A stretch of DNA of 64,000 nucleotides. Source: an uncultured Gammaproteobacteria bacterium (GTDB lineage: Bacteria; Patescibacteriota; Patescibacteriia; Magasanikbacterales; UBA922). Positions 1,170-55,611 of this stretch are shown piece by piece. Positions within the stretch are counted from its first letter, which is position 1; every line of letters begins with the position of its first letter. The notes below the pieces were generated by a model. The model ran no database searches and was not told where the DNA came from. It was given only the letters and a program-made list of their open reading frames with translations. The stretch is taken from positions 128,964 through 192,963 of the forward strand of contig CAZQXB010000001.1 in assembly GCA_964597575.1 (NCBI GenBank), written 5' to 3'. The position numbers were made by a program, and so were the translations under genes.

Positions 1170-1180
1170 AGGAATGGAAA

Positions 1181-2272: not shown

Positions 2273-2279
2273 AAGCGTT

Positions 2280-6515: not shown

Positions 6516-6534
6516 ACGCACGAAACACGTTCAA

Positions 6535-6565
6535 AACACACCCTCAATTGAGGGTGTGTTTTGTT
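6535..6565 (+). terminator. intrinsic terminator after rpsR
   Basis: Stem ACACACCCTC / GAGGGTGTGT with loop AATT, followed by TTTTGTTT. Confidence 0.7.
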
Positions 6566-6600
6566 TCTGTGGTATACTTGAGACATATTTGCCTGTCATT

Positions 6601-8379
6601 ATGCCTCGAAAAGGCTTTTCTTTAATTGAAATTATTGTTGCTATTGGGGTATTTGCGCTTCTTACGGTTGGGCTCTATAGCTTGCTCCAATTTGTTTTTA
6701 AATCAGTCTACCAGTCGAGACTGCGCATTTTAGAAACGAGCATTTTGAATGAACAGATCGAGTTGATACGGAATCTCACCTTTTCCGATGTCGGTATTTT
6801 AAATGGAAGTCCGCCTGGTGTTCTTACGCGAACCATAACAACAACACGTGATGGAATCCCTTTTATCATTACAAGAACTATTCGCAATGTTGATGATCCG
6901 GCCGATGGGACGATTGGCGGGGATCCAAACGATACGGCCGCTGCCGATTATAAATTCGTTGATGTTTCAATCATTTGTACCCGTTGCACACAAAATACTC
7001 CTCTTACACTCTCAACGATCGTGGGCCCTCGGTATCTAGAGGGTGACCCAACGCATGGAGCTCTTTTTATTGATGTATTCGACCCACTTGCAAACCCAAT
7101 TGTGGGGGCAGATGTGCATGTGGTGGCAACTTCAACTAGTCCCACATTTGATTTTACTGAAACGACAGATAATAACGGGCGAGTAAGCCTCGTCGATTTG
7201 CCAAGTGGAGTAACGGCGTATCATATTACTGTAACAAAAGCCGGCCATACCACCGATGGTACAGTGGCCGAGAGTGCACTTGTACCAAACCCAACGAAAC
7301 CCCCAGCAACGGTCGTGGCGCAGGATCTGACCGAGATTAGTTTTACGATTGAACCGATTGGGGTGGTTGATCTCTCTACACTTTCGTATACCTGCCAGCC
7401 TATCGGAGGAGTGGATGTTGATATGGACGGCACAAAACTCATTGCGACAAATCCAGATATTCTGCTCATTTCGACAAGCACCGTTACTTCGGCGGGTGGA
7501 CTTGGTCAGTTTTCCCCCCTTATTAGTGATGCGTATGGTTTTGGAGTTTCAGGCTACGATGTCATTGGAACAATTCCTCAGACACCGGTAACAATTTTAA
7601 CCGGAACAACGCAGCCAGTGAGTCTTATTTTGGGGGCAAACACAACACACTCTCTTCTTGTAAATGTCCGAGATGGGGTAACCCGGCAACCGCTTCCTGG
7701 TGCTACGGTTACCGTTACGACAAGCCTTGGTTATAATGTAAGCCAGCAAACAGGTGTTGGTTTTCTTCGTCAAACCGATTGGTCGGATGGTTCGGGCCAG
7801 GAATTGTTTGTAACAGGTACAATGTACTGGCAAGATGATAGTAATGTGGACGCAGTCGTTGATCCAGGAAATGTGCTTTTGCGGGCAGTGGGTTTAGGGT
7901 ATACCGGAGCCGGAACTCTGGAATCTTCCATTTTCGATTTCGGGAGTTCATCCAATTACGGAAATATTATTTGGGAACCGGTTCTTCAATTACCAGCGAC
8001 CGGTACGAGTTCGCTCAAGTTTCATATCGCAACGTCAAATTCTTCAACCCCGGCATCGTGGAATTATTATGGTCCAGACGGTACCCCTTCTACCTACTAT
8101 GATGTGAGTGATACGGTTATTTCCAGTCTTCATGATGGTGAACAGTTTTTGCGGTATAGGATATATTTAGAAACTGCCTCATCGACAGTAACCCCAGTGC
8201 TTTCCGACCTCGTGTTTACCTATACCAATAGCTGTAGCCCTCCAGGTCAGGCATTTTTTTCTTCGCTTAGTGCCATAAGCCACGGGATTCAGGTCACAAG
8301 AGACGGGTACCAAACACAGGAGGTATCTGTTACCCCGAGTGGGGATAGTGCGGTTACGATCGACCTTCTTGCTTTATGA
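6601..8379 (+). CDS. large prepilin-type (class III signal peptide) minor pilin / pilus-associated adhesin-like protein
   Basis: The N-terminus MPRKG|FSLIEIIVAIGVFALL is a prepilin cleavage/methylation motif. Beta-rich Thr/Val-rich domains of about 550 aa follow. The start was set at this Met because the upstream part of the ORF overlaps rpsR in another frame. Confidence 0.65.
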   Translation: MPRKGFSLIEIIVAIGVFALLTVGLYSLLQFVFKSVYQSRLRILETSILNEQIELIRNLTFSDVGILNGSPPGVLTRTITTTRDGIPFIITRTIRNVDDPADGTIGGDPNDTAAADYKFVDVSIICTRCTQNTPLTLSTIVGPRYLEGDPTHGALFIDVFDPLANPIVGADVHVVATSTSPTFDFTETTDNNGRVSLVDLPSGVTAYHITVTKAGHTTDGTVAESALVPNPTKPPATVVAQDLTEISFTIEPIGVVDLSTLSYTCQPIGGVDVDMDGTKLIATNPDILLISTSTVTSAGGLGQFSPLISDAYGFGVSGYDVIGTIPQTPVTILTGTTQPVSLILGANTTHSLLVNVRDGVTRQPLPGATVTVTTSLGYNVSQQTGVGFLRQTDWSDGSGQELFVTGTMYWQDDSNVDAVVDPGNVLLRAVGLGYTGAGTLESSIFDFGSSSNYGNIIWEPVLQLPATGTSSLKFHIATSNSSTPASWNYYGPDGTPSTYYDVSDTVISSLHDGEQFLRYRIYLETASSTVTPVLSDLVFTYTNSCSPPGQAFFSSLSAISHGIQVTRDGYQTQEVSVTPSGDSAVTIDLLAL

Positions 8380-8990
8380 TAAGAGATACGTCTTCGCGAG
8401 GATTTACCATACTTGAGGCCCTTTTTGCCATAAGCATTTTTGCGCTTTTGGCGATGTCGATGGTTTGGGTTCTTATTACCGGCCTTCGTACTCAGCGCAT
8501 TGTGTGGGATCAGCTGAGTGGTCAAAATGATGTTCGGAGAGTGCTTCAACAGGTGGTCGATGATGCACGTCGAGCAGAGCCGTCAAGTGTGGGTGCCTAC
8601 CCCATTGTCGTGGCGTCGTCGACTGAATTTACTTTTTACGCCAACATTAATAACGACAATTTGCGTGAACGAGTCCGCTTTTGGGTTCAAAACGAAGAAC
8701 TTCGAAAAGGCGTTATTACCCCGACCGGTTCTCCGCTTACCTATGAAAGTGCGAATGAAGAGGTAACCGTGCTCGCGCATGATGTGAAGAACATTACCCT
8801 GAACATTCCTCTCTTTTCGTACTATGATGATACATTTACTGGTACTGAAGAGGCGCTTTCGCAGCCGGTAACCACGACCGCGGTACGCCTGCTTAAGGTT
8901 GATCTTGTGGTGGACGTGAATCCTATTTCTTCTCCGGTACCAGTGCGGGCAGAGACATTCGTTCAAGTGCGAAATGTAAAGTTAAACTAG
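8376..8990 (+). CDS. prepilin-type minor pilin (pseudopilin)
   Basis: The N-terminus …SSRG|FTILEALFAISIFALL is a class III signal peptide carrying E5. The gene overlaps the preceding one by 4 nt. Confidence 0.7.
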   Translation: MIRDTSSRGFTILEALFAISIFALLAMSMVWVLITGLRTQRIVWDQLSGQNDVRRVLQQVVDDARRAEPSSVGAYPIVVASSTEFTFYANINNDNLRERVRFWVQNEELRKGVITPTGSPLTYESANEEVTVLAHDVKNITLNIPLFSYYDDTFTGTEEALSQPVTTTAVRLLKVDLVVDVNPISSPVPVRAETFVQVRNVKLN

Positions 8991-9009
8991 ATTTTCTTGT
9001 TCGTAGGAT

Positions 9010-10377
9010 ATGTTCCATTTTTTTTCGAAACGGCACAGATTAGAAAAAAAGAATTCCTCAGACCGTCGAGGAGTTATTTTGGTCTACCTCCTTATTTTTG
9101 GTTCGCTCGTAACCACCATGCTTGTGACCGGGCTTGCAAGCTATACGTTATTTGAACACCGTGTTTCCATGCGAAAACACGATCGCGATTTAGCCTTTCA
9201 TATTGCAGAGGCGGGAATTAATTATTATCGTTGGCACTTGGCGCATTACCCAGATGATTTACAAAATGGTACGGGGCAGCCTGGGCCATACGAACTCCCG
9301 TTTCGCGATAAAGACGGAAATACGTTAGGGTACTATTCTTTAGACATAACACAGCCTTTGATTGGTTCAACGATTGTTCAGATTCGCTCAACCGGCTGGA
9401 CCACTGAAGAGCCAGACAGACCAAGAACTCTTGTGGTTCGCCTCGGCTTTCCGGCGCTAGCTGATTACACCTTCCTCCAGAATGCAAACATGCGTTTTAG
9501 TAGTACGACGGTTGTTCATGGGCCTGTGCACTCTAATGGTGGAATTCAGTTTGATGGTACAACAGACGCCGAAGTTACTTCAGCTCGGCAAACGTATGAC
9601 CCAGGTGATGGTATTCAGCATCCTGGGGTTTGGGGGGTAGGGGGGCCGACGAATTTCTTTACTTATCCAGTTCCGGCGCAAGATTTTAATGCGGTAACAG
9701 TGGATTTAGCAAATTTACAGGCCGATGCAATTAGCGGGGGCACCCGCCTTCTCTCCTCTGGTCGAGAAGGTTGGCATATTACGTTTCGTACAGACGGGCG
9801 CTACGACTTACGTCGTGTGAACAGTCGATCTTCGTATGATGGCAACGCCTACGACATTAATGGTCAAACATTTTGGGGAACATATGATCCTCCAGCAAAC
9901 GGAGCGCTATTTGTCGAAGATAATGTGTGGGTGGACGGAATCGTCGATGGCCGTATTACGGTCGGAGCCTCAAATTTTCAAGGCGCCCCTGATCGCGATA
10001 TTATTATTTCTGGAAATTTAATGTACGAAACCCAGGTGGGGGATGATGTGCTAGGGCTCATCGCTGAACGGGATATCGTGGTACCAAGAAATGTTCCTGA
10101 TACGATGACGATAAACGCGGCTGCTTTGGCTCAAAATGGACGTATTTTTCGCCCGTACTACACCGGAACAAATAGTATCCGGACAAACTTAGTATTTTCT
10201 GGATCCCAAATTGCTTTTAGCGGAGGAGGCTGGAAGTATCTCGGTGGTTCTGGGACGGTCATCTCTGGTTTTGTGAATACGAACCATAGTTACGATGGAA
10301 ACTTGCGGTTTTACCCACCCCCAGGCTTCCCTACCTCCGGAGTGTACGAATTATTGAGCTGGGCTGAAGAAGAGTAA
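9010..10377 (+). CDS. PilX-like large minor pilin / pilus tip-associated protein
   Basis: An N-terminal basic region and hydrophobic helix (RRGVILVYLLIFGSLVTTMLVTGLA) are followed by a large beta-rich domain. It is the third gene in the minor-pilin cluster. Confidence 0.5.
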   Translation: MFHFFSKRHRLEKKNSSDRRGVILVYLLIFGSLVTTMLVTGLASYTLFEHRVSMRKHDRDLAFHIAEAGINYYRWHLAHYPDDLQNGTGQPGPYELPFRDKDGNTLGYYSLDITQPLIGSTIVQIRSTGWTTEEPDRPRTLVVRLGFPALADYTFLQNANMRFSSTTVVHGPVHSNGGIQFDGTTDAEVTSARQTYDPGDGIQHPGVWGVGGPTNFFTYPVPAQDFNAVTVDLANLQADAISGGTRLLSSGREGWHITFRTDGRYDLRRVNSRSSYDGNAYDINGQTFWGTYDPPANGALFVEDNVWVDGIVDGRITVGASNFQGAPDRDIIISGNLMYETQVGDDVLGLIAERDIVVPRNVPDTMTINAAALAQNGRIFRPYYTGTNSIRTNLVFSGSQIAFSGGGWKYLGGSGTVISGFVNTNHSYDGNLRFYPPPGFPTSGVYELLSWAEEE

Positions 10378-10446
10378 GAAATAGGCGCTCCTTCTTTGCT
10401 TTTCGATGCTTTTAAATGCAAAAACTTCGTGTTATACTGTACTTGT

Positions 10447-11322
10447 ATGCAGAAAGTCCGTAAGGGAGTCATTATTGTTGCGGGGCTCGGGACCCGTTTT
10501 TTGCCTGCAACAAAAGCCATGCCAAAAGAAATGTTGCCGGTACTCGATAAGCCAGTACTTCAGTTTATTGTTGAAGAAATGTGTGCCAGTGGCATTACGG
10601 AGATCATGTTTGTGACGAGCTCACAAAAGCGGGCAATTGAAGACCATTTTGACCGTGATCGTGATTTTGAACGGTATTTAGAGGAAAAAGGGAAGTTATC
10701 TGCTATTCAATCTTTGCTTGATTTAACTAAGAAAGTCCGTTTTTTTTATACTCGGCAGTCAGAACCTTTGGGCAATGGCCATGCTCTGCTTTGTGCTAGA
10801 GAGTTTGTTGGGAATGAGCCATTTGCTTTTTCAGATGGCGACAGCATTATTGATGCTAAAACACCGGTTATTACACAGCTTTTGAGAATTTTTCAAAAAG
10901 AAGAGGCTACGGTGATCGGGGTGCAGAGGCTTACCGACCCAAAAGCTATGACTGTATATGGTAATGTCTACGGAGAGCCTACCAAGACAAAAAAGACGTA
11001 CCGGGTAAAAAAACTTGTAGAAAAACCAGTAGTTTCGGCGGTTTCCCCAGAAGGGCTCATTATTGGTGGAATGCGCTATATTTTAACCAAAGACATCTGG
11101 CCTTTTCTTGAAAGCAGTTCTCGAGGAAAGGATGGAGAAATATGGTTAACCGATGCGGTGCACGCTATGGCTCAAAAGAAGCGGCTGTACGCATATGAAT
11201 ATGAAGGTACCTATTTCGATACCGGAAATAAACTGGCTTTGCTTAAAACCACTATTCATTTCGCCATGAAAGACGAGGCAATGAAACAAGAATTGTGGAG
11301 AACTTTACAAAAGTATGCGTAA
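10447..11322 (+). CDS. galU: UTP--glucose-1-phosphate uridylyltransferase
   Basis: Nucleotidyltransferase motif VRKGVIIVAGLGTRFLPATKAMPKEMLPV…. A TGn-extended -10 (gtgtTATACT) lies just upstream. The start is set at MQKVRKG. Confidence 0.85.
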   Translation: MQKVRKGVIIVAGLGTRFLPATKAMPKEMLPVLDKPVLQFIVEEMCASGITEIMFVTSSQKRAIEDHFDRDRDFERYLEEKGKLSAIQSLLDLTKKVRFFYTRQSEPLGNGHALLCAREFVGNEPFAFSDGDSIIDAKTPVITQLLRIFQKEEATVIGVQRLTDPKAMTVYGNVYGEPTKTKKTYRVKKLVEKPVVSAVSPEGLIIGGMRYILTKDIWPFLESSSRGKDGEIWLTDAVHAMAQKKRLYAYEYEGTYFDTGNKLALLKTTIHFAMKDEAMKQELWRTLQKYA

Positions 11323-11908
11323 TTTTCGCCTCTTGAAGATTGTATTTGCCGGAAGCTTTATTTTGGGAAATATTGTTCCGAGTTTTCTTTTTGCCCAAGA
11401 AAACATGAGTCCAGGGCCGGTTATGAGTGAGCCGGGCGACAGAGCGGTAAACGAAACGGTAACAGCATACTGCAATGAAAAATATGAGAAAGATATAAAA
11501 TACGGATGTGAATTAACAACGTTTAGTGATAGCCCGAACGCGCCAGCCGAGTGTAAAGCCTCTTTTTTAAGAGAGTGTATTGCTCAGAGAAACGAACTTG
11601 AGCATGATATAGAAGTCGCAGGTGAAGCGCCGGCTGCGTATGTTCCACGAGGGGCAGGTAGCCTTAATATTCTACAAACCACAAGCTTGACCGGTGCATT
11701 GGGAAAAATTTTAACGACCATCATTGGAATTGTTGGTTCCATAGCGCTTGTCATGTTCATCTATGGCGGGTTTTTGTGGATGACGTCTCAGGGGAACAGC
11801 GATAAGGTAAGCCAGGCAGTGCGAATTATGGTTTGGTCTTCGCTTGGGGTCATGGTTATTTTATCGAGTTACGCCATTGTCGACTTTTTGTTTGGAGCTT
11901 TTGGCTAA
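11315..11908 (+). CDS. array paralog 1: secreted two-TM protein of the TrbC/VirB2-like (T4SS-pilin-like) family
   Basis: A signal peptide is followed by a 4-Cys extracytoplasmic domain and a C-terminal conserved module IALVMFIYGGFLWMTSQGNSDKVSQA…ILSSYAIVDF. The gene overlaps the galU stop by 8 nt. Confidence 0.6.
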   Translation: MRNFRLLKIVFAGSFILGNIVPSFLFAQENMSPGPVMSEPGDRAVNETVTAYCNEKYEKDIKYGCELTTFSDSPNAPAECKASFLRECIAQRNELEHDIEVAGEAPAAYVPRGAGSLNILQTTSLTGALGKILTTIIGIVGSIALVMFIYGGFLWMTSQGNSDKVSQAVRIMVWSSLGVMVILSSYAIVDFLFGAFG

Positions 11909-11921
11909 TCTACTCAAGCTT

Positions 11922-13298
11922 ATGTATAAACGTCTTGTCAGTTTCTTTCTCCTTATCGCCACGCTTGTGGTTGGTGGTTTGGGGTGCAAAGGGCTCACTC
12001 AAGAAGAGGTACAGGCGGTTCGCCCAGTTCGTTTGCAATACTGGACCGTATATAACAATGTAGAGGAGCTCCGGGCACTTGCAGCAGAGTATAAAACACT
12101 CCGTCCCCATGTGACCGTCGATATTCGACGTCTTCGATTTGATGAATTTGAACGGGTACTCTTGAACGCTCTTGCTGATGATGCTGGCCCAGATATTATT
12201 TCTGTTCGGAATACCGATCTTCGAGGAAAGGTGTCACGTCTCTCAGCAATGCCAGCGAGTGTTACCATGGCTCGCCTTGAGGTAAAAGGGCAGTACGCAA
12301 AAGAAACCGTGGTCACTCAAGAGGTAGTTCCCATGCCAACAAAACAAACCATTGAGAGTGTGTACGTTCAGGCCGTTCCACAAGATGTGGTGATAAGTAA
12401 CAAAATCTACGGGCTGCCCCTGGCCATAGATACACTTGCACTTTATTATAATAAAGACCTTCTCGATGCGGCCGGCGTGCCTCTTCCTCCAAAAACCTGG
12501 CCAGAACTATTCGAGGCGGTAAAGAAGGGGACAAAGTATGATGCCGACGGAAATATTGTGCAGGCAGGCATAGCCATGGGAACAGGGGCAAATATCGACA
12601 ATGCCTTTGATATCATCTCCCTTCTCATGCATCAAACGAATGTTACCATTGCCGCAGGCCGTGAGGTACAATTCGCCAAAGGACTCGATAATCGGGCGGC
12701 GCCCAATCACCCGGCTATGCAAGTTCTTCGTTTTTATACTGATTTTGCCAGAAATTCCAAAGAAATCTATTCTTGGAATACCAGCATGCCAAATGCGTTC
12801 GAGTCATTCGTGCGCGGGCAAAGTGTGTTTTACTTGGGGTTTGCTTTTGATCGTGAGCGTATTCGAGCAGCAGCTCCACAGATGAATGTTGAAGTTGTGG
12901 CCGCGCCCCAACTTCCCGATGCTACTCCGGTCAATGTTGCAAACTACTGGGTTGAGAGCGTTCTTAAAAAATCAAAGCGCCAGAATGAAGCTTGGGATTT
13001 CATTCGGTTTATTACAAGTCCGCAAAACGTACTTCGGTATACCAAAGCATCACTTCAGCCATCACCCCTTCGAGCTCAGTTAACCGAACAGCTTTCCAAC
13101 CCGCTTTTAGTGCCGTTTACGAGTCAGGTTCTCACCGCAAAGAATTGGTATGAAGGGCGGAATATCGACGCGGTCCGAGCAGCTTTTGCAGATATGGCTG
13201 ATAAGTCGGTTGCGCCTCTTAAAGAAGAGGAAGATCAGTTGGTACGCGACGCAGGCCTGCTTCTTCGTACGGCTCAGATAACTCAACAAACGTACTAA
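11922..13298 (+). CDS. ABC transporter solute-binding lipoprotein (family 1, sugar-type), orphan
   Basis: The lipobox LVVGGLG|C is followed by a periplasmic-binding-protein fold sequence of 459 aa. No permease or ATPase gene is adjacent. Confidence 0.75.
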   Translation: MYKRLVSFFLLIATLVVGGLGCKGLTQEEVQAVRPVRLQYWTVYNNVEELRALAAEYKTLRPHVTVDIRRLRFDEFERVLLNALADDAGPDIISVRNTDLRGKVSRLSAMPASVTMARLEVKGQYAKETVVTQEVVPMPTKQTIESVYVQAVPQDVVISNKIYGLPLAIDTLALYYNKDLLDAAGVPLPPKTWPELFEAVKKGTKYDADGNIVQAGIAMGTGANIDNAFDIISLLMHQTNVTIAAGREVQFAKGLDNRAAPNHPAMQVLRFYTDFARNSKEIYSWNTSMPNAFESFVRGQSVFYLGFAFDRERIRAAAPQMNVEVVAAPQLPDATPVNVANYWVESVLKKSKRQNEAWDFIRFITSPQNVLRYTKASLQPSPLRAQLTEQLSNPLLVPFTSQVLTAKNWYEGRNIDAVRAAFADMADKSVAPLKEEEDQLVRDAGLLLRTAQITQQTY

Positions 13299-13301
13299 GA
13301 T

Positions 13302-14243
13302 ATGAAATATTTTTTACGAAAATGTTGTGTTATCGCACTGTGCGTACTCGGTTTTTTCACAACTTCTTCTTTTGTTCGCGCAGTAGGGGAAGACTGTTGT
13401 GTTCTCTATGAGGCTGACCGAGCTGTGAGTTGTCGCGTAAGTGGGGTTTGTAATGCTCAGACCACTGCTCAATACCCTGCAAGTACGAGTGAGATCGGAA
13501 ATCCGGGTGTTAGTTGCCGTTCGGAAAACGACGGTCAAGCGCGTATCAGGGTTTGCACCAAAGAAATAATTATATCGGAACGCTCTACGTCATGTGGCGC
13601 CGAAGCTTTATGTAACGAGGCTCTTGTTGAGTATGATAACTGTGAAAATTTATCTGTTTCAGGAGAATCAAATTCTTCATGCGCAAGAAATCCGAGATGT
13701 TTCGTCCTCCCTGGTGCGAACGGGATTACTTGTGTAAGTAAAGAAGACAGAAATCTCTGTAGTAAAATCACCGATGCCTCGCTCTGTGGGCCTGCGAGTG
13801 ATAACAGCATAAGAGGGGCGCGATTTTGCCGTTGGTTAAGTGGTCCAGAAGGGGCACGATGTGTCGGGGATGCTGAAGCCGCTGCTGCCGGGCGTTTATC
13901 AGGGGTAAAAAGCAGTGTCTTGCCCCAGTGCGCCATCCAAGGTACATGTCGAAGCATTCGCGATTTAGAAGATCTGGCTTTTAAAGTAGTTGAGTTGCTG
14001 TTTAGCATTATTGGTGCAGTCTCCTTTGCCTTTTTCATCTACGGAGGGGTGGTTATGATTTCTTCGTTTGGGAATAGTGATCAATTTTCGAAAGGAAAGG
14101 CAATCTTAGTGGCAGCGGTAACTGGTATTATCATCTCCTTCAGCGCGTATCTCTTAATCGGCTACTTGTTTACTCTGCTTGGTATTGAAGCGGGGTTACG
14201 AGGCGGTATCCAAGTAAGTTTTCTTTCCCATCTATGGCTCTAA
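13302..14243 (+). CDS. array paralog 2: Cys-rich secreted domain + C-terminal TrbC/VirB2-like two-TM module
   Basis: An SPI-type signal peptide is followed by an extracytoplasmic domain of about 200 aa with more than 25 Cys. The C-terminal module reads FAFFIYGGVVMISSFGNSDQFSKGKA. Confidence 0.6.
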   Translation: MKYFLRKCCVIALCVLGFFTTSSFVRAVGEDCCVLYEADRAVSCRVSGVCNAQTTAQYPASTSEIGNPGVSCRSENDGQARIRVCTKEIIISERSTSCGAEALCNEALVEYDNCENLSVSGESNSSCARNPRCFVLPGANGITCVSKEDRNLCSKITDASLCGPASDNSIRGARFCRWLSGPEGARCVGDAEAAAAGRLSGVKSSVLPQCAIQGTCRSIRDLEDLAFKVVELLFSIIGAVSFAFFIYGGVVMISSFGNSDQFSKGKAILVAAVTGIIISFSAYLLIGYLFTLLGIEAGLRGGIQVSFLSHLWL

Positions 14244-14824
14244 AACGCACCTCAAAGACATTTTTTATTTTGGTTTTAGGGCTCATTACCCTTAGTATTC
14301 CTTCCCAAATAGAAGCGGCAGTTTGTCGATATACGGAACGAGTATATATTGGAGTAGCGGGAACTCCAACTCGAGATGAGGCACGTTGCCAACCCCTCCA
14401 GGTAGGGGATACCACTGCCCAAAGTAACGAGTGTAGTAATCTCTGTGCCCCGGCAGGCAACGGCCTTCCTGGTACTTGTGTTGTTGATCAAACGGCATGC
14501 GATTCTGCTCCTTCAGGGGTTCAAGACGATAAACTAAAGGCGTACGTTATCTCCCTCCAAAACCCTCTGGGGTCAAAATATCAAAAAGATGCCGGGGTAC
14601 TCATTCCGGAACTCCTCGGAACCCTTATTAGTAATGCTCTTGGGCTGGTCGGCACTTTAACGCTCGTTGTATTCATTTACGGAGGCTTTGTTTGGCTTAC
14701 TTCTGCGGGAAATGAAGAGAAGGTGTCCAAAGGGACGCATGCTATGATGTATGCTGCGATTGGGATCTGTATTATTTTTTCAAGTTATGCTATACTGCAG
14801 TTAGTCTTTCAGGCCTTCAGATAG
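14234..14824 (+). CDS. array paralog 3
   Basis: A signal peptide (…SQIEA|A) and a Cys-rich region precede the module LVVFIYGGFVWLTSAGNEEKVSKG. The gene overlaps the previous one by 10 nt. Confidence 0.6.
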   Translation: MALKRTSKTFFILVLGLITLSIPSQIEAAVCRYTERVYIGVAGTPTRDEARCQPLQVGDTTAQSNECSNLCAPAGNGLPGTCVVDQTACDSAPSGVQDDKLKAYVISLQNPLGSKYQKDAGVLIPELLGTLISNALGLVGTLTLVVFIYGGFVWLTSAGNEEKVSKGTHAMMYAAIGICIIFSSYAILQLVFQAFR

Positions 14825-14905
14825 AAACAGAAAAAGACTATCCATGTGATAATTTTAGGTAGTAAGGACTTTTATGAATCTGACTACACGAAAGGGGGTG
14901 AGTAC

Positions 14906-15355
14906 ATGACTCACGCAATGTCGAACGTCACTCGGTTTGGTTATATTCTTAGTACCATCGCCGTACTCGCCTTAGGAGTAGCGGTAACACCAGCTTTTGC
15001 TCAAGATAACACTGACCCACTCGGGGTTACTGCTTTTGAACAACCTGGAGTATCAAACCTCGGTAGCCGTCCTCTTGAACAAACAATTGGCGGTATTATC
15101 AACGTAGGCTTAAGCCTTCTTGGTATCGTCGCTGTCGTTATCATCTTAATTGGTGGTGCGAAGTGGATGACCGCTGGAGGAAACGAAGATAAAGTTGGCG
15201 AAGCTCGTCAATTAATCGTTTCTGGTATTATCGGTTTAGCGATCATTATGAGCGCTTGGGCAATCGCCCGCTTCGTCTTAGTCCGCTTAGGACAACAGAC
15301 TGGAGTAGCCGGTGCAAACGAAAACTACCAACTTGACGGACCAGTAGCTCCGTAA
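14906..15355 (+). CDS. array paralog 4
   Basis: The Shine-Dalgarno sequence AAGGGGGTG precedes the ATG. Signal peptide …TPAFA|Q and module VIILIGGAKWMTAGGNEDKVGEARQ. Confidence 0.6.
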   Translation: MTHAMSNVTRFGYILSTIAVLALGVAVTPAFAQDNTDPLGVTAFEQPGVSNLGSRPLEQTIGGIINVGLSLLGIVAVVIILIGGAKWMTAGGNEDKVGEARQLIVSGIIGLAIIMSAWAIARFVLVRLGQQTGVAGANENYQLDGPVAP

Positions 15356-15380
15356 TCGTTTGTAGAAAATATGGTGTAGA

Positions 15381-15407
15381 GGGGCAGGGTTCCTGCCCCT
15401 TTCTACC
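15381..15407 (+). terminator. intrinsic terminator inside the array (after paralog 4)
   Basis: Stem GGGGCAGG / CCTGCCCC with loop GTTC, followed by TTTCTACCAAAATT. Confidence 0.55.
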
Positions 15408-15479
15408 AAAATTCGAGGGTTGAAATGTGGATACAGTCTACATTTTAGGACTTGAGCACTTTATACCTTCTCTTTCTCT

Positions 15480-15926
15480 ATGGTACGTGTGAAAACACTT
15501 TTTGGAGAGGCGAATAGAAAAAAAAGTTTTTTCCTTACTTTTTCTGCTCTCATTTTAGGTCTCGGCGTTTTTGTGTTTTCTGTTTCTCCGGTGTTTGCCG
15601 AAGGTGTTGATATTGGGATTGAGTATGCAGCCAGTTCCGGTTTACCCGATACCCCGCCCATTATCATTATTACCAACATCATCAATATCATTCTTGGGCT
15701 TTTGGGGATCATCACAACGGTTCTTATTGTGTACGCTGGATTTTTGTGGCTGACCTCTGCGGGGAATGAAGATAAAATTGATACTGCCAAACAGGTAATT
15801 AGCGCGGCTGTAATTGGGCTCATTCTCGTACTTTCTTCCTACACCATTAGCCGTTTTGCCCTTCGCGCAGTGTATAAGAGTACGACTGGAAATAACTACC
15901 CAACCCCGTATCTGTATAATCGCTAA
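15480..15926 (+). CDS. array paralog 5
   Basis: Signal peptide …SPVFA|E and module VLIVYAGFLWLTSAGNEDKIDTAKQ. Confidence 0.6.
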   Translation: MVRVKTLFGEANRKKSFFLTFSALILGLGVFVFSVSPVFAEGVDIGIEYAASSGLPDTPPIIIITNIINIILGLLGIITTVLIVYAGFLWLTSAGNEDKIDTAKQVISAAVIGLILVLSSYTISRFALRAVYKSTTGNNYPTPYLYNR

Positions 15927-15934
15927 GAGTTTGT

Positions 15935-16777
15935 ATGAAGCGCCATCTTCGATGGACAATGATTGGGGTGGTTACAATCGTGGTTTTGTTTGGTGTTTCA
16001 TTGTTTGGTGAAACCGTGTTCGGGCAAACGCAAGCAGTGGATAAGCTTCGTCAAGGCGCCACAGAGTTGGTGGGAAAAACGCCCTTGCCAATCAGTAATA
16101 CGAACATAAGCACGTCACAGCTGCCCACGCTTATTGGTCGAATTATTGGAAACATTTTGTCGCTTCTCGGAATTGTCTTTTTTCTTCTCACCCTCTATGC
16201 AGGTTTGCTGTGGATGTTTGCCCGCGGCGATGAGTCAAAGGCAGGGAAGGCAGCAGACATTATAAAGGGAGCTATCGCTGGTCTTATTGTGGTGCTCGGG
16301 TCGTACGCGTTGACGAACTTGGTTTTCGATATTGTCGGTTTCCCTAATTCACAGGAGCCATCAGTACAAGAATCGGCCGATGCACCTCTTAGAAATCCAG
16401 GGACACGGCCAACGGGTGATCGAACGACCCCGATCGGAGGGCTTTGTGTCACCGACGAAGAGTGTGTGAATTTAGCGGTATGCCAAAATTCACGTTGTGT
16501 GGATTTATGTACAGCACAGCCACCAAGTGCCGGAGGTGGGTATGCATGCCGAGATGTGGCTTTGTGTGATGAACCAAGTATTGTGCGAAATTTATGCAGC
16601 GGAGGGGTGGATCGTGTCTGCTGTCGTGAAGCCGTGGAATTTCCTGATGAAGCCTGTCGTCGCCGAATCACTAGCGGCTCATTCTGTGTTGATCCGAACG
16701 GACAGCCGCACAACTGTGATGTGCACTCCACACGACTCACCTGTGACGCAGACAATTGCTGCAATTGGGGCAACTAA
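15935..16777 (+). CDS. array paralog 6: N-terminal two-TM module + C-terminal Cys-rich domain
   Basis: The module LTLYAGLLWMFARGDESKAGKA sits near the N-terminus. A C-terminal domain of about 150 aa with about 24 Cys follows. Confidence 0.6.
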   Translation: MKRHLRWTMIGVVTIVVLFGVSLFGETVFGQTQAVDKLRQGATELVGKTPLPISNTNISTSQLPTLIGRIIGNILSLLGIVFFLLTLYAGLLWMFARGDESKAGKAADIIKGAIAGLIVVLGSYALTNLVFDIVGFPNSQEPSVQESADAPLRNPGTRPTGDRTTPIGGLCVTDEECVNLAVCQNSRCVDLCTAQPPSAGGGYACRDVALCDEPSIVRNLCSGGVDRVCCREAVEFPDEACRRRITSGSFCVDPNGQPHNCDVHSTRLTCDADNCCNWGN

Positions 16778-16783
16778 TAACCT

Positions 16784-17494
16784 ATGCGTATGATATTTCC
16801 TTCCCGTTTCATTGTATCGTTTTTCGCAGGCTTTGTGGGTGCAGGTGTAAGCACTGCTACCGCGGTGTTCGCTCAGAGTGCGGGCGGAAATTTTGGTTTG
16901 AATGCAACCGCGGGTTCAGCAGGTTTAGCAAGCGGGGGAGCTACGTCATTGCCAGATTTTATCGGAAACTTGGTTGGTGTCGGCCTGTCATTCATCGGTA
17001 TCGTTTTTTTCATTCTCATGCTCTATGGTGGATTTTTATGGATGACCGCCCGTGGGAGTGAAGATCAGACCAGTAAAGCCATTGGTACCATTACGGCCGG
17101 AGCGATTGGGATGATTGTCATTATGGCTTCGTATACCATAACCAGTTTCTTGTTTAATAGTCTAACCCCAGGTGGAAGTAGTGCTCCTGGTCAATCATCG
17201 CAAGTGCTCGGCTGCAGAGCAGGAGAAGTAGGGCGGTGCACTTCTATTGGCGGCTGTGGAGCAGGGCGCGTAGAACAGAATATAAATGCTTGTCCGGGAG
17301 CGGATGAGTACCTCTGCTGCAGTGAGGATTCTTCAACCAATGCTCGACAGGTGTGGTGCTGCGTCGTCGGTGGAGACAATCCAAACCAACCAAATGATCC
17401 GGTTCAGATATATACGGTTGGAGAACCGCAAGAATGTACCAGTCGAGGAGGTAACGCAAGTTTCATTCCATTTGAAGATTGCACCGCTTCTTAA
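16784..17494 (+). CDS. array paralog 7: N-terminal module + C-terminal Cys-rich domain
   Basis: Signal peptide …AVFA|Q, module ILMLYGGFLWMTARGSEDQTSKA, and a C-terminal Gly/Cys-rich domain of about 110 aa. Confidence 0.6.
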   Translation: MRMIFPSRFIVSFFAGFVGAGVSTATAVFAQSAGGNFGLNATAGSAGLASGGATSLPDFIGNLVGVGLSFIGIVFFILMLYGGFLWMTARGSEDQTSKAIGTITAGAIGMIVIMASYTITSFLFNSLTPGGSSAPGQSSQVLGCRAGEVGRCTSIGGCGAGRVEQNINACPGADEYLCCSEDSSTNARQVWCCVVGGDNPNQPNDPVQIYTVGEPQECTSRGGNASFIPFEDCTAS

Positions 17495-17509
17495 GGCGTA
17501 TACTGCTTT

Positions 17510-17872
17510 ATGAGAAAAACTGCCATTTCCTTGAGTACACTCTTCCTGACCTTGCCAGTTCAAGTTTTGGCTGCACCAAAAATTCAAGATGCACGCAATT
17601 TTCTCAATCAAACGCACGCGCCAACGGGGTTGTCGCCGACAAGAAACGCGGTTGATATTGCAGTGCAGGTGATTCAGGTCGGCTTTGGTCTTGTTGGTCT
17701 CATCTTCTTTTGCCTTATGATCTACGCTGGGTTTATGTGGATTCTCGATCGGGGGAATGAAGAACGGGCAGCGAAGGCAAAAGCCACCTTTACTGCCGCA
17801 ACAGCCGGTGTTATCGTTATTTTGGCGGCCTACGCTATTGCGTCGTTTGTCACAGACTTTGTTTCAGGGTAA
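17510..17872 (+). CDS. array paralog 8 (minimal, about 95 aa mature)
   Basis: Signal peptide …VQVLA|A and module CLMIYAGFMWILDRGNEERAAKAKA. Confidence 0.6.
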   Translation: MRKTAISLSTLFLTLPVQVLAAPKIQDARNFLNQTHAPTGLSPTRNAVDIAVQVIQVGFGLVGLIFFCLMIYAGFMWILDRGNEERAAKAKATFTAATAGVIVILAAYAIASFVTDFVSG

Positions 17873-17889
17873 GCTTAACCCACATTCAT

Positions 17890-18252
17890 ATGATGAAAAA
17901 TCTTAAAAAGATATTCGTAGCAGTACTAAGCTTTGCTCCTGTTTCTGTGCTTGCTCAAGGGAACTTAGGGGATGCATCTGCCCGTTTAGGAAATGTTGGT
18001 CGTCGTGTGGGGGTTTCGCAGCAAGATTTACCAACATTGGCTGGAAATGTGATTAGTACGGCGCTTACCTTGGTCGGTTTGATTTTTCTTATTCTCATGG
18101 TCTACGCAGGATACTTATGGATGACCGCCCGAGGAGACGAAGGTCAAGTAGAAAAAGCCCTCGCGATTGTAAAGACGTGCATTATTGGGCTTATTGTGGT
18201 TATGTCTGCATACGCCATCACCTTTTTTGTTCTTAGCCGCTTTGGACGCTAA
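17890..18252 (+). CDS. array paralog 9 (minimal)
   Basis: Signal peptide …VSVLA|Q and module LILMVYAGYLWMTARGDEGQVEKA. Confidence 0.6.
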   Translation: MMKNLKKIFVAVLSFAPVSVLAQGNLGDASARLGNVGRRVGVSQQDLPTLAGNVISTALTLVGLIFLILMVYAGYLWMTARGDEGQVEKALAIVKTCIIGLIVVMSAYAITFFVLSRFGR

Positions 18253-18253
18253 T

Positions 18254-18646
18254 ATGTTTCATTCTCTTTTAGCGCGGGTAACGGTAACTGTCGTTGCGCT
18301 TTCACTTTGGCTTGTGCCAGTCGCCTTTGCCCAAAATCTTGGGCTCGATAAAGCAAGAACTGCAGCCGGAAGTGCGGGGTATAATCAATACACCACAGAA
18401 ACGACTTTTGCGGAAACCCTGGGAACCGTAGTCAAAGCGGCTCTTTCGTTTGTGGGCGTAATCTTCCTTATTCTCATGGTTTACGCAGGATACTTATGGA
18501 TGACCGCCCGAGGAGACGAAGGAAAGGTCGATAAAGCGACCGACATTATTCGCGCGGCAATTATTGGTTTTATTATCACGATGGGCGCGTATAGCATTAC
18601 AGCATTTGTTGTGCCTGCAATTTTAGAGAGAACCGTTGCTAACTAA
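18254..18646 (+). CDS. array paralog 10 (minimal)
   Basis: Start set at MFHSLL, 2 nt after the previous stop. Module LILMVYAGYLWMTARGDEGKVDKA. A 56-nt tract is nearly identical to one in paralog 9. Confidence 0.6.
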   Translation: MFHSLLARVTVTVVALSLWLVPVAFAQNLGLDKARTAAGSAGYNQYTTETTFAETLGTVVKAALSFVGVIFLILMVYAGYLWMTARGDEGKVDKATDIIRAAIIGFIITMGAYSITAFVVPAILERTVAN

Positions 18647-18650
18647 TTTT

Positions 18651-19175
18651 ATGATGAACTGGGGACGTGGAAAAAAAATACTCTTCACCATCTGTGCTCT
18701 TTTTTTAATGCTCCCGGTTTTTGCACAGGCCCAATCACTCCGAACAAATATCATGGATCAAATTCGGGTGGGAGGGGAAAGTGCGAGTTATAATTCTTCA
18801 GTAGATAATCCGCAAACATTTGCGGCTGGGCTTATACAAATATTTTTAGGCCTCTTAGCCACTATTTTTCTCATTCTTATCCTCATGAGCGGATACTGGT
18901 TGATTACGGCCCGGGGAGATGAGAGTAAGTATGATAAGGCACTCTCTACGATCAAGCGGGCGATCATTGGATTTACGCTTGTCATTGCATCATATGCGCT
19001 TGTTAGTTTGATTGCTCGGGTTATAGTTTCGAGCACCGTGCCGGATGTTGATAGGGTGCGTTGTGTACCAGATCGAAGTGTTCCAGGTACAATCGACACC
19101 AGTGCTTGCGCTCGGTTTATTGATGAATCAAGTTGTTTAGCAGCAGACATGTCCGATTGCTTATGGATGCCATAA
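18651..19175 (+). CDS. array paralog 11 with short C-terminal 4-Cys tail
   Basis: ATG start at MMNWGRG; the longer ORF starts with TTG. Signal peptide …VFAQA|Q, module ILILMSGYWLITARGDESKYDKA, and the C-terminal tail …RCVPD…SACARFIDESSCLAADMSDC. Confidence 0.55.
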   Translation: MMNWGRGKKILFTICALFLMLPVFAQAQSLRTNIMDQIRVGGESASYNSSVDNPQTFAAGLIQIFLGLLATIFLILILMSGYWLITARGDESKYDKALSTIKRAIIGFTLVIASYALVSLIARVIVSSTVPDVDRVRCVPDRSVPGTIDTSACARFIDESSCLAADMSDCLWMP

Positions 19176-19180
19176 TTCGT

Positions 19181-19693
19181 ATGACCCACCCTATATCAAA
19201 AATACGTTGGCTTAGTACATTCGTAGGCTTTATCCTTTGTTGCCTCTTTTTGCCTACTTTTGTTTTGGCACAAAGCCCACTTTCTCCTTTTACTCCTCCG
19301 CCACCTGGTGCGCATATTGATACACAGACAGAAGCATTTCTCGGACAGCGTGGGGTTGGAACAGGAACAACGACGTATGATGTACGAAGTGTTGTCGCAA
19401 ACATTGTTCGGGGCGCAACCGGACTCCTTGGTATTATTTTTATTATATATGCCGTATACGGCGGGATGATGATTCTTACTTCTGCTGGGGATGAAGATAA
19501 AGTGGCTGTCGGAAAAAGTTCGATTCGCACTGCTACACTTGGGGTTTTAATTAGTTTTGGGGCGTATGCGATTACCACGTTTGTCACTTCAGCAATTTTG
19601 CGAAGTAGTGCGGCTACAAATGAACGCGAGAGCTTCATTGAGTTTAGTAGGGATCCTGATATAAATCTCGATCTTGATCCGAATGCACCATAG
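19181..19693 (+). CDS. array paralog 12
   Basis: Start set at MTHPIS after the paralog-11 stop. Signal peptide …FVLA|Q and module FIIYAVYGGMMILTSAGDEDKVAVGKS. Confidence 0.55.
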   Translation: MTHPISKIRWLSTFVGFILCCLFLPTFVLAQSPLSPFTPPPPGAHIDTQTEAFLGQRGVGTGTTTYDVRSVVANIVRGATGLLGIIFIIYAVYGGMMILTSAGDEDKVAVGKSSIRTATLGVLISFGAYAITTFVTSAILRSSAATNERESFIEFSRDPDINLDLDPNAP

Positions 19694-19720
19694 GTGTCGT
19701 TTCCTTAAATAGGAAAAAAT

Positions 19721-19750
19721 AAAAGAATCACCGAAAGGCGATTCTTTTAT
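19721..19750. terminator. bidirectional intrinsic terminator closing the array
   Basis: Stem AAAAGAATCACC / GGCGATTCTTTT with loop GAAA. It is flanked by A-rich sequence on one side and T-rich on the other, and sits between converging genes. Confidence 0.65.
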
Positions 19751-19759
19751 TTATGATTG

Positions 19760-20872
19760 TTATTGGAGGGAGGAGAGGATCGTGTCGACGGCAGGCAGTA
19801 AGGGTTTAGTGCCTTTGGGGGCGGTATACCCGTGCCCCAGCGCCTCTGGTTTCTGGCCGATATAGTAAAGAAGATCAGACAGCGAGCGAGCCACAACCCC
19901 ATACCCGTGTTCAAGAATAAACTCCACATTGTGTTCTTCTTGCCCAGGAATCGGTTGAATCGCAAGGATTGGTTTTTGGAGAACGATACATTCGCTTGTG
20001 GTGAGTCCGCCTGGTTTTGTAATAATGATATCGGCCATTTTCATATAGCTTTCGAGTTCATCCGTCCAGCCAAGGGCAGTGAGATGAATGTGAGGAGGAG
20101 GAGACATGGCGTTCAGTTTTTGAGCTAGCACCGTATTTTTTCCGGCCACTGCGATAATGGTTGTTTTTTTAGGGAGACGGAACAGTGTCTCTACAATTTT
20201 TGTGAGGTCAATGAGGCCCTCTCCCCCTGAGAGAACCAAAATAGTCTGCACTTCCGGGTCATACCCATACGCCTTTTTTAGGGCGTGAGCAGAATAGGGT
20301 TCATAGAAAGAAGTATTTATGGGGATTCCAGAAACAATGATCTGAGACTCCTTTAGCCCTGCTTCAATCAGTTTGAATTGCATTTTTTCTGTGGCGACAA
20401 AGAACTGATTAATATCATTTGATACAAACAGCGCGTGTTTGTCGTAATCAGTTAAGACGAGGCTTATTGGCACCTCTTTTAAAAAGTCCGGTCGGTCATT
20501 CCCGAGGGTCTGTGTTGGTAAATAATGGGTTCCAATGATATGTGTGGGTGCATATTCCTGCACATGCCGGAGAAAGGCCTTTGTGTTTACGTGTGAGAAG
20601 CGTTTGCTTAAGCGTGACCAGTGGGAGTCCTTCTTTTCTTTATTTGTTGAATTGTAGATCAGCCCCCATACTTGCGGTGCCTGCTTAATAAGCAAAGTAT
20701 ACGAGCGAGTAAATGCTGTTTTGTAGGCTTTTGAGACGTGGTCCATCATGTCAATGTGGGTAGCCTCAATTCCGAGTGCCCGCGCACGCGCTACAATCGC
20801 TTCTGCGGCCCGTACATGACCTGCACCAACAGAAACTGACACACAGAGGATTTTCTTTTGTGGGGAAGACAT
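19760..20872 (-). CDS. GT28-family glycosyltransferase (MGDG synthase / UgtP-like diacylglycerol glycosyltransferase)
   Basis: The N-terminal Gly-rich motif ILCVSVSVGAGHVRAAEAI and the C-terminal nucleotide-sugar-binding half are present. The start was trimmed to MSSPQKK because the longer ORF would run into tRNA-His. Confidence 0.7.
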   Translation of the reverse strand: MSSPQKKILCVSVSVGAGHVRAAEAIVARARALGIEATHIDMMDHVSKAYKTAFTRSYTLLIKQAPQVWGLIYNSTNKEKKDSHWSRLSKRFSHVNTKAFLRHVQEYAPTHIIGTHYLPTQTLGNDRPDFLKEVPISLVLTDYDKHALFVSNDINQFFVATEKMQFKLIEAGLKESQIIVSGIPINTSFYEPYSAHALKKAYGYDPEVQTILVLSGGEGLIDLTKIVETLFRLPKKTTIIAVAGKNTVLAQKLNAMSPPPHIHLTALGWTDELESYMKMADIIITKPGGLTTSECIVLQKPILAIQPIPGQEEHNVEFILEHGYGVVARSLSDLLYYIGQKPEALGHGYTAPKGTKPLLPAVDTILSSLQ

Positions 20873-20944
20873 ATAATCAATTGTAACACAGGGTCTATAA
20901 ACACAAAACACCCAAATTGGGTGTTTCGCTTCGTTTTCCCCTAC

Positions 20945-21021
20945 TGGGGTGACTAACGGGAATCGAACCCGTGATAAGGGTACCACAAACCCCTGTGTTA
21001 CCTCTACACCATAGTCACCCC
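20945..21021 (-). tRNA. tRNA-His (anticodon GTG)
   Basis: The reverse complement folds as a cloverleaf: acceptor stem GGGGTGA/TCACCCC with an extra 5' G, anticodon stem GGGGT/ACCCT with loop TTGTGGT, and T-arm ACGGG-TTCGATT-CCCGT. The 3' half closely resembles E. coli tRNA-His. Confidence 0.85.
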
Positions 21022-21865: not shown

Positions 21866-21937
21866 TGTCCCTGCTAGGAATCGAACCTAGATCTAGAGCT
21901 TAGAAGGCTCTCGTTCTATCCATTGAACTACAAGGAC
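21866..21937 (-). tRNA. tRNA-Arg (anticodon TCT)
   Basis: The reverse complement is GTCCTTGTAGTTCAATGGATAGAACGAGAGCCTTCTAAGCTCTAGATCTAGGTTCGATTCCTAGCAGGGACA. It has a 7-bp acceptor stem, D-stem GTTC/GAAC, anticodon stem AGAGC/GCTCT with loop CTTCTAA, and T-arm CTAGG-TTCGATT-CCTAG. Confidence 0.9.
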
Positions 21938-52690: not shown

Positions 52691-52797
52691 ATACTATCGC
52701 ATTCAGTGTATTTGTTTTTTCAAAAAAAGGCAATCATGCCGAATTTCTTTTTTTGTGCTATACTAATCACATATATTTTCTCTTCGCCTGTCATTGT

Positions 52798-55515: not shown

Positions 55516-55611
55516 TATTTTTTTATTACAATTTGAGTGTCGCTTTTTTGTTGTGTAAAAAAATGGTATACTGAGGGTGATTTTATTCACGATGTTAGAA
55601 TCGTTGCTTGT

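Follow-up and report, generated by a model that had tools for sequence, protein, structure and literature searches.

An ordered array of twelve VirB2-like, putative pilin genes in a Candidatus Magasanikbacteria-type chromosome

Patescibacteria account for a large share of bacterial diversity and live mostly attached to other microbes. Arrays of VirB2-like pilin genes have already been published for this group. In a search of 3,035 genomes of Patescibacteria for the Pfam families PF18895 and PF04956, Quinonero-Coronel et al. (2025, PMC12102498) found 441 VirB2 arrays of 2-11 genes, which stand in tandem or one non-pilin gene apart, share a mean identity of 25% (maximum 54%) and lie near virB4 in 1,135 of 1,948 assemblies, a location that is typical and not obligatory. 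Wang et al. (2023, PMC10633639) showed by transposon sequencing that the predicted pilin series within Southlakia epibionticum's type IV secretion system (T4SS) cluster is essential for growth as an epibiont; the Patescibacteria T4SS with its pilin array is the only T4SS known to be essential to the life of its own carrier (PMC10633639, PMC12857230). McLean et al. (2020, PMC7427843) read the corresponding array of TM7x as Sec-secreted subunits resembling those of pertussis toxin. Tandem VirB2 paralogs are also found in Bartonella, Anaplasma and Rickettsiales, where roles in host interaction have been proposed (cited in PMC12102498). Here we describe an array of twelve pilin-like genes, all on the plus strand at positions 11315-19693 of a 64-kb stretch of contig CAZQXB010000001.1 (GCA_964597575.1), which is called the window below. 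As arrays of VirB2-like pilins in Patescibacteria are already in the literature, the present one is of a described kind.

We read the locus as a chromosomal operon of Candidatus Magasanikbacteria type (class ABY1) that encodes twelve diverged, non-redundant VirB2-like pilins, which would be polymerised by a VirB4-type T4SS encoded at a distance, and we give this reading a probability of roughly 0.55. The genes, numbered W1 to W12 in their order along the strand (Table 1), come from the list of open reading frames (ORFs), with starts curated to precede each signal peptide. An initial annotation had described twelve same-strand genes interrupted by a single gene for a solute-binding protein (SBP), and the ORFs and Pfam matches bear this out. 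The array is far beyond what chance would produce, since all twelve proteins match one Pfam family and the same overall layout is repeated across dozens of genomes; no thirteenth copy was found elsewhere in the window with a hidden Markov model (HMM) of the family.

PF18895 (T4SS_pilin) is matched by all twelve proteins, by ten of them at or above its gathering score of 26.6 bits (26.9-39.9) and by W8 and W12 just under it, with coverage of the full module (Table 1). The Pfam family of T4SS pilins specific to the Candidate Phyla Radiation (CPR) that the initial annotation mentioned without an accession thus exists, and is PF18895. The architecture belonging to the family, a Sec signal peptide, two helices and a short conserved loop, was found as well. 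W9 was chosen for structure prediction and homolog searches; among 5.8 billion proteins it has 607 relatives, with PF18895 in all of the 120 listed, and those that carry names are nearly all Candidatus Magasanikbacteria or unclassified Patescibacteria group bacteria. All 93 of the 93 aligned relatives of the family match PF18895 too. At E <= 1e-3, a HMMER search with W4 against 1.84 billion cluster representatives returned 25,231 proteins, of which 3,141 reach E <= 1e-10; the PF18895-type family is very large, and as PF18895 would label these genes automatically, their annotation is routine.

Among the database relatives of W4, the pilin module heads giant proteins of 2,200-4,520 residues, one of which (P0175, 4,520 residues) combines T4SS_pilin with Big_5, TIG (Ig-like), BNR-propeller and CARDB domains, and some single predicted proteins hold 6-10 tandem copies of the module. 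These giants (P0175, P0129, P0232) could be real fusions or gene calls merged under the wrong genetic code.

Two other families help to place the proteins. The NCBIfam model NF045849 ("Mbov_0395 family pilin-like conjugal transfer protein", from integrative and conjugative elements (ICEs) of Mycoplasma) is the top match, and usually the sole one, for eleven of the twelve, with 22.2-37.0 bits and E values of 2e-9 to 8e-5 over nearly all of its 80 positions, always under its cutoff of 40 bits; W12 reaches 37 bits and W2 has no match. By these scores the NF045849 family is related to, and distinct from, that of the array. PF07963 (N_methyl), which describes the class III signal of type IV pilus (T4P) pilins, matches none of the twelve and does match the pseudopilins encoded upstream at 6388-8379 and 8376-8990, in line with the initial view that the array proteins are not T4P pilins.

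In a MAFFT alignment of the twelve proteins the shared module consists of helix 1, the motif Y-[AG]-G-x-x-W-M-T-x-x-G-[ND]-E-[DE]-K, K-A and helix 2. The module and motif are as first proposed, while the length of about 60 residues given for it has to be raised to ~76. In pairwise comparison the paralogs share a mean of 33% identity within the module (range 12-55%) and of 28% along the full length. Each of the twelve proteins has exactly three hydrophobic segments, namely the signal peptide and the two helices. The signal-peptide c-region, judged by eye, ends in [AVIL]-x-A; the next residue is Q in eight of the twelve and A, V or E in another three, while W6 (15935) has G at position -1. Seven copies bear additional N- or C-terminal regions and five, W4 among them, are near-bare hairpins. 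The extra regions precede the hairpin in W1-W3 and follow it, rich in Cys, in W6, W7 and W11; the C-terminal tail of W12 is free of Cys. The most conserved region of the proteins is the loop between the helices, above any ectodomain. As Cys-rich domains flank the hairpin on either side, both termini would be extracytoplasmic, and the placement of these domains fits such a topology.

A minimal copy had been expected to fold as a helical hairpin, and the AlphaFold2 model of W9, built from the alignment of 93 sequences, is a long one (helices 44-78 and 84-119), with a predicted local distance difference test score (pLDDT) of 83 that exceeds 90 across residues 50-110. W2, with only 5 homologs among the 5.8 billion proteins and 16 invariant Cys, was modelled from only 6 sequences at a pLDDT of 63; its residues 30-110 are predicted to be beta-rich, and a Foldseek comparison of the model with the PDB gave no match below E 0.8.

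The initial annotation had likened the two-helix arrangement to VirB2/TrbC pilins and proposed a search with PF04956 (TrbC). This yielded weak matches, the best being W11 with 18.8 bits and W4 with 15.3 bits, none of which reached the gathering score of 27.9. Because the TrbC matches were below threshold and no better than those to unrelated membrane families, this test was replaced by hhalign comparisons with controls, in which the family profile was aligned with six genuine plasmid-borne VirB2/TrbC genes. Probabilities of 72-81% (E 1e-5 to 3e-5) were obtained in colinear alignments that pair the A-x-A cleavage site before Q, helix 1, the W-M-x-x-R/G loop and helix 2, against 0.3-0.4% for reversed profiles and at most 1.2% for thirty column-shuffled profiles. 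The remote similarity is thus specific, as the likeness to VirB2/TrbC had implied. In P0232, the relative of W4 mentioned above, PF18895 and PF04956 TrbC (144.6 bits) match one and the same module. Taken together, the profile comparisons lend moderate support to a remote homology of the array proteins with conjugative pilins.

The array has a long history in its lineage. Syntenic loci were collected from close homologs (L001, L004 and L005, with 68-83% identity on W9, and the more distant L007 and L008), and a scan of GTDB species representatives with the 93-sequence alignment added 80 further loci, mostly titled Magasanikbacteria, the source genome not being among them. By a lineage HMM, the 38 arrays lying wholly within the fetched DNA contain 6-14 genes, with a median of 11, so that twelve genes are normal for the clade even though they exceed the published range. 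In L001, L004 and L005 the best match of each paralog of the window stands at the same ordinal position, and in ~45 arrays the types follow one another colinearly, as 1-2-3-4-5-(6/7/8)-9-10-11-12; departures consist of local duplications (4-4, 7-7-7, 9-9) and of ambiguous typing at the first or last positions in some arrays. Because of these one-to-one positional orthologs and the colinear order, the twelve copies would serve distinct, maintained functions, and the array is probably ancient, a fixed set of specialised subunits rather than a shuffling repertoire. The title "uncultured Gammaproteobacteria bacterium" is given to many representative metagenome-assembled genomes of GTDB in which a pilin locus of Magasanikbacteria type is present (L009, L010, L017-L021, L028-L031 and others), which looks like mislabelling from a bulk submission.

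Not all types are conserved to the same degree. Orthologs of the short copies share 56-83% identity (W4 73-74%, W5 58-65%, W10 74-83%), and those of the copies with ectodomains 37-58% (W1 37-42%, W2 44-55%, W6 45-51%), apart from one W7 pair at 65%. Short copies such as W4 and W10 equal the flanking housekeeping genes in conservation, GalU among them with 74-77%. At protein identities of 40-80% synonymous sites are saturated, which makes the ratio of non-synonymous to synonymous substitution rates (dN/dS) unsuitable here.

One copy, W4, is set apart by its expression signals. The Shine-Dalgarno (SD) leader in front of it, GAAAGGGGGTGAG, pairs with the anti-SD sequence at -15.3 kcal/mol, compared with +3.6 to -6.4 for the other eleven genes. 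This 13-mer occurs once in the window and, exactly and once per locus, in 21 of 95 loci; in L001, L004 and L005, those checked, the W4-type gene follows it closely. In 83 loci, 83% of 77 W4-type genes and 0% of every other type have an SD that is strong (<= -13 kcal/mol). W4 is also followed by the GC-rich stem-loop that the initial annotation had taken for a terminator at 15381 splitting the array. This hairpin is real (Table 1), is conserved and shows compensatory changes in L001, L004 and L005; its short U-tract kept it from being called in a scan for consensus terminators. In 51 of 53 loci a hairpin of -15 kcal/mol or stronger stands 3' of the W4-type gene; the median is -24.7, 79% are at -20 or stronger, and the hairpins of different loci are mutually unrelated in sequence, whereas the medians are -10 to -12 at the other junctions and -15.5 at the array end. 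The tight packing reported at first, with gaps of at most 10 nt, needs correcting: most gaps measure -10 to 17 nt, and W4 has 81 nt before and 124 nt after it. W4 is the sole copy with an SD leader and a strong 3' stem-loop together. Because this combination is unique to it and lineage-wide, we infer from the architecture of gene expression that W4 is the major pilin and that the remaining copies are minor ones. We claim no promoter, since a consensus scan gave no more sites than shuffled sequence, and Rfam has no match within the array.

On this reading Sec would export each precursor and signal peptidase I would cleave it, in most cases ahead of Gln. The mature protein would form a helical hairpin in the membrane, its two termini outside the cell and the W-M-T-x-x-G-N/D-E-D-K loop facing the cytoplasm. 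As in VirB2/TrbC systems, subunits might then be pulled from the membrane and polymerised, giving a surface filament or short conduit in contact with the host cell, most likely by the action of a VirB4-type T4SS of a monoderm, MPF-FATA-like kind encoded elsewhere in the genome. W4 would provide the abundant shaft subunit. W5, W8, W9 and W10, the Cys-rich W1, W2, W3, W6, W7 and W11, and W12 would be minor pilins of low abundance, each with its own fixed role, for instance in initiation, tip formation, decoration or adhesion, their disulfide-rich domains being projected towards the host.

Several observations weigh against this reading. Patescibacterial T4SS are themselves credited with just the "potential" to elaborate pili (PMC12857230). 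Among the 93 relatives, Pfam TrbC matches (19 at E <= 0.1) are rarer than spurious ones to Cyt_bd_oxida_II (76) and DctQ (65). Fold searches do not discriminate, the fold being a generic hairpin, and a profile search of PDB sequences found no pilin. The loop Arg that aligns with R91 of VirB2 is present in six of the twelve copies only and is missing from W4, the candidate major subunit. Ectodomains of 100-220 residues, and of thousands of residues in some relatives, cannot decorate every subunit of a tight VirB2-type helix. The neighbours of the array are T4P and not T4SS genes: Pfam and NCBIfam scans of the large ORFs revealed no VirB4, VirB6, VirB11-type protein, coupling protein or relaxase in the 64 kb, and none of VirB4, VirB6, coupling protein and relaxase was seen in the 5.5 kb beyond the window start. 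Within 10 kb of ~80 related arrays, no ORF of at least 500 residues has a Walker A motif besides PilB-type ATPases, FtsH and one unscanned ORF of 507 residues (L058). Ten representatives of these large ORFs, from the multi-member clusters and two singletons, were scanned for families and proved to be PilB-type ATPase, FtsH, PNPase, NrdD, PBP1, H+-PPase and similar proteins; the remaining singletons were covered by the Walker A check. Nine of the ten Magasanikbacteria genomes that have related loci and are listed in Table S1 of PMC12102498 are VirB4-positive there. Since no VirB4 lies near the arrays and yet nine of these ten genomes possess it, array and T4SS would be encoded apart in this lineage; for the source genome, whose window is free of VirB4, VirB6, VirB11-type and relaxase genes, we can only infer the link to a T4SS. 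The only matches returned by the PDB-sequence search, designed "Pizza" beta-propellers, came from a short repeated G-x-V-W-V-T-D-H-G-N motif and are an artefact.

The main competitor draws on several of these points. In it the hairpin merely holds Cys-rich ectodomains, acting as adhesins or binding modules, on the cell surface, with the short copies as spacers or partners and with neither polymerisation nor a T4SS. It would be at ease with a generic fold, with the lack of T4SS genes around the array in the window and at ~80 related loci, with the additional terminal regions of seven copies, and with giant relatives in which the module is followed by Ig-like, BNR-propeller and CARDB domains. 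It sits badly with the five copies that display almost nothing beyond the hairpin, including the best-conserved and apparently most expressed W4, and with the finding that the inter-helix loop and not an ectodomain is most conserved. The profile similarity to VirB2 is specific, and in Saccharibacteria the homologous array forms part of a T4SS cluster that is essential (PMC10633639). We regard an anchor of this type as unlikely, though as an explanation to be taken seriously.

Another reading is that the copies can stand in for one another and take turns, giving antigenic variation or a match to different host strains; the initial annotation had considered it, and PMC12102498 brings it up with Bartonella and Anaplasma as the parallel. 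The low identity between paralogs (means of 28-33%) might suggest it, as might the faster evolution of the ectodomain copies, the local duplication of types 4, 7 and 9 in some genomes and a hint of exchange between W9 and W10. The conservation of the array contradicts it: the ortholog of every copy keeps its ordinal position in each of three relatives, the order is colinear throughout the lineage, and neither long DNA repeats nor invertible segments nor silent cassettes were found in the array. Moreover, none of the copies is broken and they lie close together in one orientation, for which reason they are presumably expressed together and not alternately, and the expression signals mark one fixed copy. 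We therefore consider alternate use improbable. As for W9 and W10, they share 49 of 50 nt across the loop motif (18094-18143 and 18473-18522). In four genomes 47-55 of 60 nt of this tract are identical between genes 9 and 10 of one genome, compared with 46-52 of 60 between genomes for the same gene, and synonymous codon choices co-vary within a genome as much as or more than for the same gene between genomes, which hints at local gene conversion.

The pilin reading must also accommodate the genes around the array. A GalU homolog directly precedes it in 45 of 46 related loci, and here the stop of the GalU-like gene overlaps the start of W1 by 8 nt. The pseudopilin and PilX genes lie directly upstream in the same orientation; of the 16 related loci whose flanks reach far enough, 11-12 have similar genes upstream. 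Because these genes share one strand, with gaps of ~20 nt or less and the 8-nt overlap, pseudopilins, GalU and array look like one transcription unit. It could be argued from this that the array serves the adjacent T4P system, as membrane platform or minor-pilin partner, and not a T4SS. None of the twelve, however, has the class III (N_methyl) signal required for T4P assembly; the linkage is not universal, L008 having S18, GalU and the array without pseudopilins. We know of no T4P system with two-helix transmembrane hairpin proteins of this kind, and a T4P role seems to us just as improbable as alternate use. The soluble toxin-complex subunits exported by a T4SS that were proposed for TM7x (PMC7427843), after pertussis toxin and its Ptl system, have in their favour the Sec-type signal peptides throughout and a layout like that of the ptx subunit genes, and are very improbable here, since the two hydrophobic helices of ~20 residues after the signal peptide (Kyte-Doolittle hydropathy >1.6 over 19 residues) mark integral membrane proteins and the similarity is to pilin families and not to toxin families.

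Table 1. Array genes, expression signals and neighbouring genes, with positions in the window.
Feature	Position	Strand	Remarks
Type IV pilus genes PilN-like (639-1169), PilM, PilC, PilB (3395-5125)	639-5125	-	Pfam/NCBIfam
Two N_methyl pseudopilins and a 455-aa PilX_N protein	6388-10377	+	one pseudopilin of 663 aa with CarboxypepD_reg domain
GalU-like UTP--glucose-1-phosphate uridylyltransferase	10396-11322	+	PF00483; TIGR01099 galU 276 bits, cutoff 327
W1, pilin paralog, 197 aa	11315-11908	+	PF18895 35.7 bits; N-terminal ectodomain with 4 Cys precedes two-helix module
Solute-binding lipoprotein (SBP_bac_1, weakly carbohydrate-type) between W1 and W2	11922-13298	+	PF01547, PF13416; lipobox VGGLG-C; weak NCBIfam GanS, MalE
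W2, pilin paralog, 313 aa	13302-14243	+	PF18895 29.8 bits; ~190-aa N-terminal ectodomain, 21 Cys
W3, pilin paralog, 196 aa	14234-14824	+	PF18895 37.6 bits; N-terminal ectodomain, 6 Cys
Shine-Dalgarno leader GAAAGGGGGTGAG	14890-14902	+	3 nt (TAC) before W4 ATG
W4, pilin paralog, 149 aa (~117 aa mature), candidate major pilin	14906-15355	+	PF18895 39.1 bits
GC-rich stem-loop after W4, then UUUCU; terminator, attenuator or mRNA-stabilising hairpin	15372-15408	+	dG -26.4 kcal/mol, z -5.5
W5, pilin paralog, short type, 148 aa	15480-15926	+	PF18895 30.3 bits
W6, pilin paralog, 280 aa	15935-16777	+	PF18895 31.0 bits; 145-aa C-terminal extension, 16 Cys
W7, pilin paralog, 236 aa	16784-17494	+	PF18895 26.9 bits; 108-aa C-terminal extension, 10 Cys
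W8, pilin paralog, minimal type, 120 aa	17510-17872	+	PF18895 25.5 bits, E 1.4e-5 (cutoff 26.6)
W9, pilin paralog, minimal type, 120 aa	17890-18252	+	PF18895 39.9 bits
W10, pilin paralog, short type, 130 aa	18254-18646	+	PF18895 33.1 bits
W11, pilin paralog, 174 aa	18651-19175	+	PF18895 33.4 bits; 48-aa C-terminal extension, 4 Cys
W12, pilin paralog, last array gene, 170 aa	19181-19693	+	PF18895 22.7 bits, E 1e-4, below cutoff
AT-rich palindromic hairpin, probable bidirectional terminator	19717-19752	.	terminator-like site, 16 pairs; between convergent W12 and glycolipid-synthase genes
Diglucosyl-diacylglycerol-synthase-like glycosyltransferase, convergent with array	19760-20872	-	

The embedded SBP gene recurs in 53 of 58 related arrays, and a gap of ~1.4 kb follows the first pilin in 28 of 38 complete ones; no gene for an ABC permease or ATPase adjoins it in the window. 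The glycolipid synthase lies downstream of the array in 37 of 71 related loci. Its longest ORF (19760-20986) overlaps in its 5' part one of two tRNA genes (20948-21018 and 21866-21937, both on the minus strand), and because of this overlap the start is probably the ATG at ~20872, which gives ~370 residues as in the orthologs. Further downstream are a XerC/D-type tyrosine recombinase (21980-22981, minus strand) and a DUF5667 protein (23697-24968, plus strand). Homologs of both follow the array in L001, L005 and L007, and the recombinase has homologs in 32 of 71 loci; as conserved neighbours they mark no mobile element here. The window also holds rpsF and ssb, the housekeeping genes for IleRS, GyrA, FtsH, S1 and ThrRS, and a 191-residue protein (47256-47831, minus strand) that matches the CRISPR-associated Csx3 domain (E 3.7e-6). 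A second PilB-type ATPase (53806-55515, plus strand) stands amid four large ORFs without a Pfam or NCBIfam match (50270-52690, of 806 residues; 52681-53772; 55537-56757; 58824-60374).

VirB2-type pili are co-polymers of protein and lipid. Given the GalU and glycolipid-synthase genes that flank the array, a glycolipid partner for the VirB2-type pilin is conceivable by analogy. We speculate further that the locus might encode one ordered heteropolymeric organelle, with W4 as shaft and eleven positionally fixed minor pilins that bear disulfide-rich ectodomains, genetically uncoupled from VirB4 and co-regulated with T4P minor pilins, GalU, the sugar-binding lipoprotein and the glycolipid synthase. 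This is a doubtful proposal and, taken as a whole, an unlikely one; if true, a protein-glycolipid filament could serve host contact and nutrient capture and may be built by a machine other than the canonical T4SS. Independently of it, the locus offers a comparative handle, with twelve types in an order conserved across a class-level lineage, one likely major subunit and seven faster-evolving copies with ectodomains or tails. It predicts which protein should be sought in filaments and which should be tested as adhesins, and it implies that such pilin arrays can be encoded far from virB4.

Among the systems with which the array can be compared, the chaperone-usher pap/fim operons have a stem-loop after the major subunit gene. 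As in the array, one subunit gene has a strong ribosome-binding site and a 3' stem-loop and its minor-subunit neighbours have neither, but the protein family and assembly pathway are unrelated, so that the likeness is one of gene-expression architecture. The Mbov_0395/MMCAP2_0565 proteins (NF045849) are likewise small membrane proteins with two helices, from bacteria that are wall-less or monoderm and have a T4SS of MPF-FATA type; theirs is a single gene on an ICE with VirB4 and VirD4, whereas the present array comprises twelve chromosomal genes and shows no ICE features. The VirB2 paralogs of Bartonella, Anaplasma and Rickettsiales also stand as several diverged tandem copies in host-dependent bacteria. 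They belong to PF04956, occur in diderms and are thought to be antigenically variable, in contrast to the fixed one-to-one orthologs and conserved order described here.

Closer still are VirB2/TrbC proteins themselves (PF04956, the Agrobacterium T-pilin), which have a mature length of ~75-100 residues, a long signal peptide cut after A-x-A and before Q, and two hydrophobic helices with a short loop starting W-M-x-x-R/G in common with the array proteins. The array differs in its sub-gathering Pfam score, its monoderm host and the lack of adjacent VirB1 or VirB3-B11, and in having twelve paralogs instead of one, many with Cys-rich ectodomains.

The closest counterparts are the VirB2 arrays of other Patescibacteria, those of S. 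epibionticum ML1 and TM7x and the set of 441, with which the locus shares PF18895, the combination of Sec signal and hairpin, and a monoderm CPR bacterium with a reduced genome. It agrees with the published definition in having at least two tandem genes, one non-pilin interrupter and low identity (28% over the full length and 33% in the module). Its paralog identities, with a mean of 28% and maxima of 48-55%, resemble the published 25% and 54%. The differences are the twelve genes, the class (ABY1, where Saccharimonadia and Microgenomatia are highlighted in PMC12102498) and the surroundings, with no virB4 from 16 kb before to 44 kb after the array and with T4P genes, GalU, SBP and glycolipid synthase as neighbours. 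The literature searched contains no report of the separation from virB4, the fixed order of types, the embedded SBP with GalU and glycolipid-synthase flanks, or a single copy marked as major subunit. The initial annotation was right in its core, and the Magasanikbacteria array is confirmed as a well-conserved further case of a described kind.

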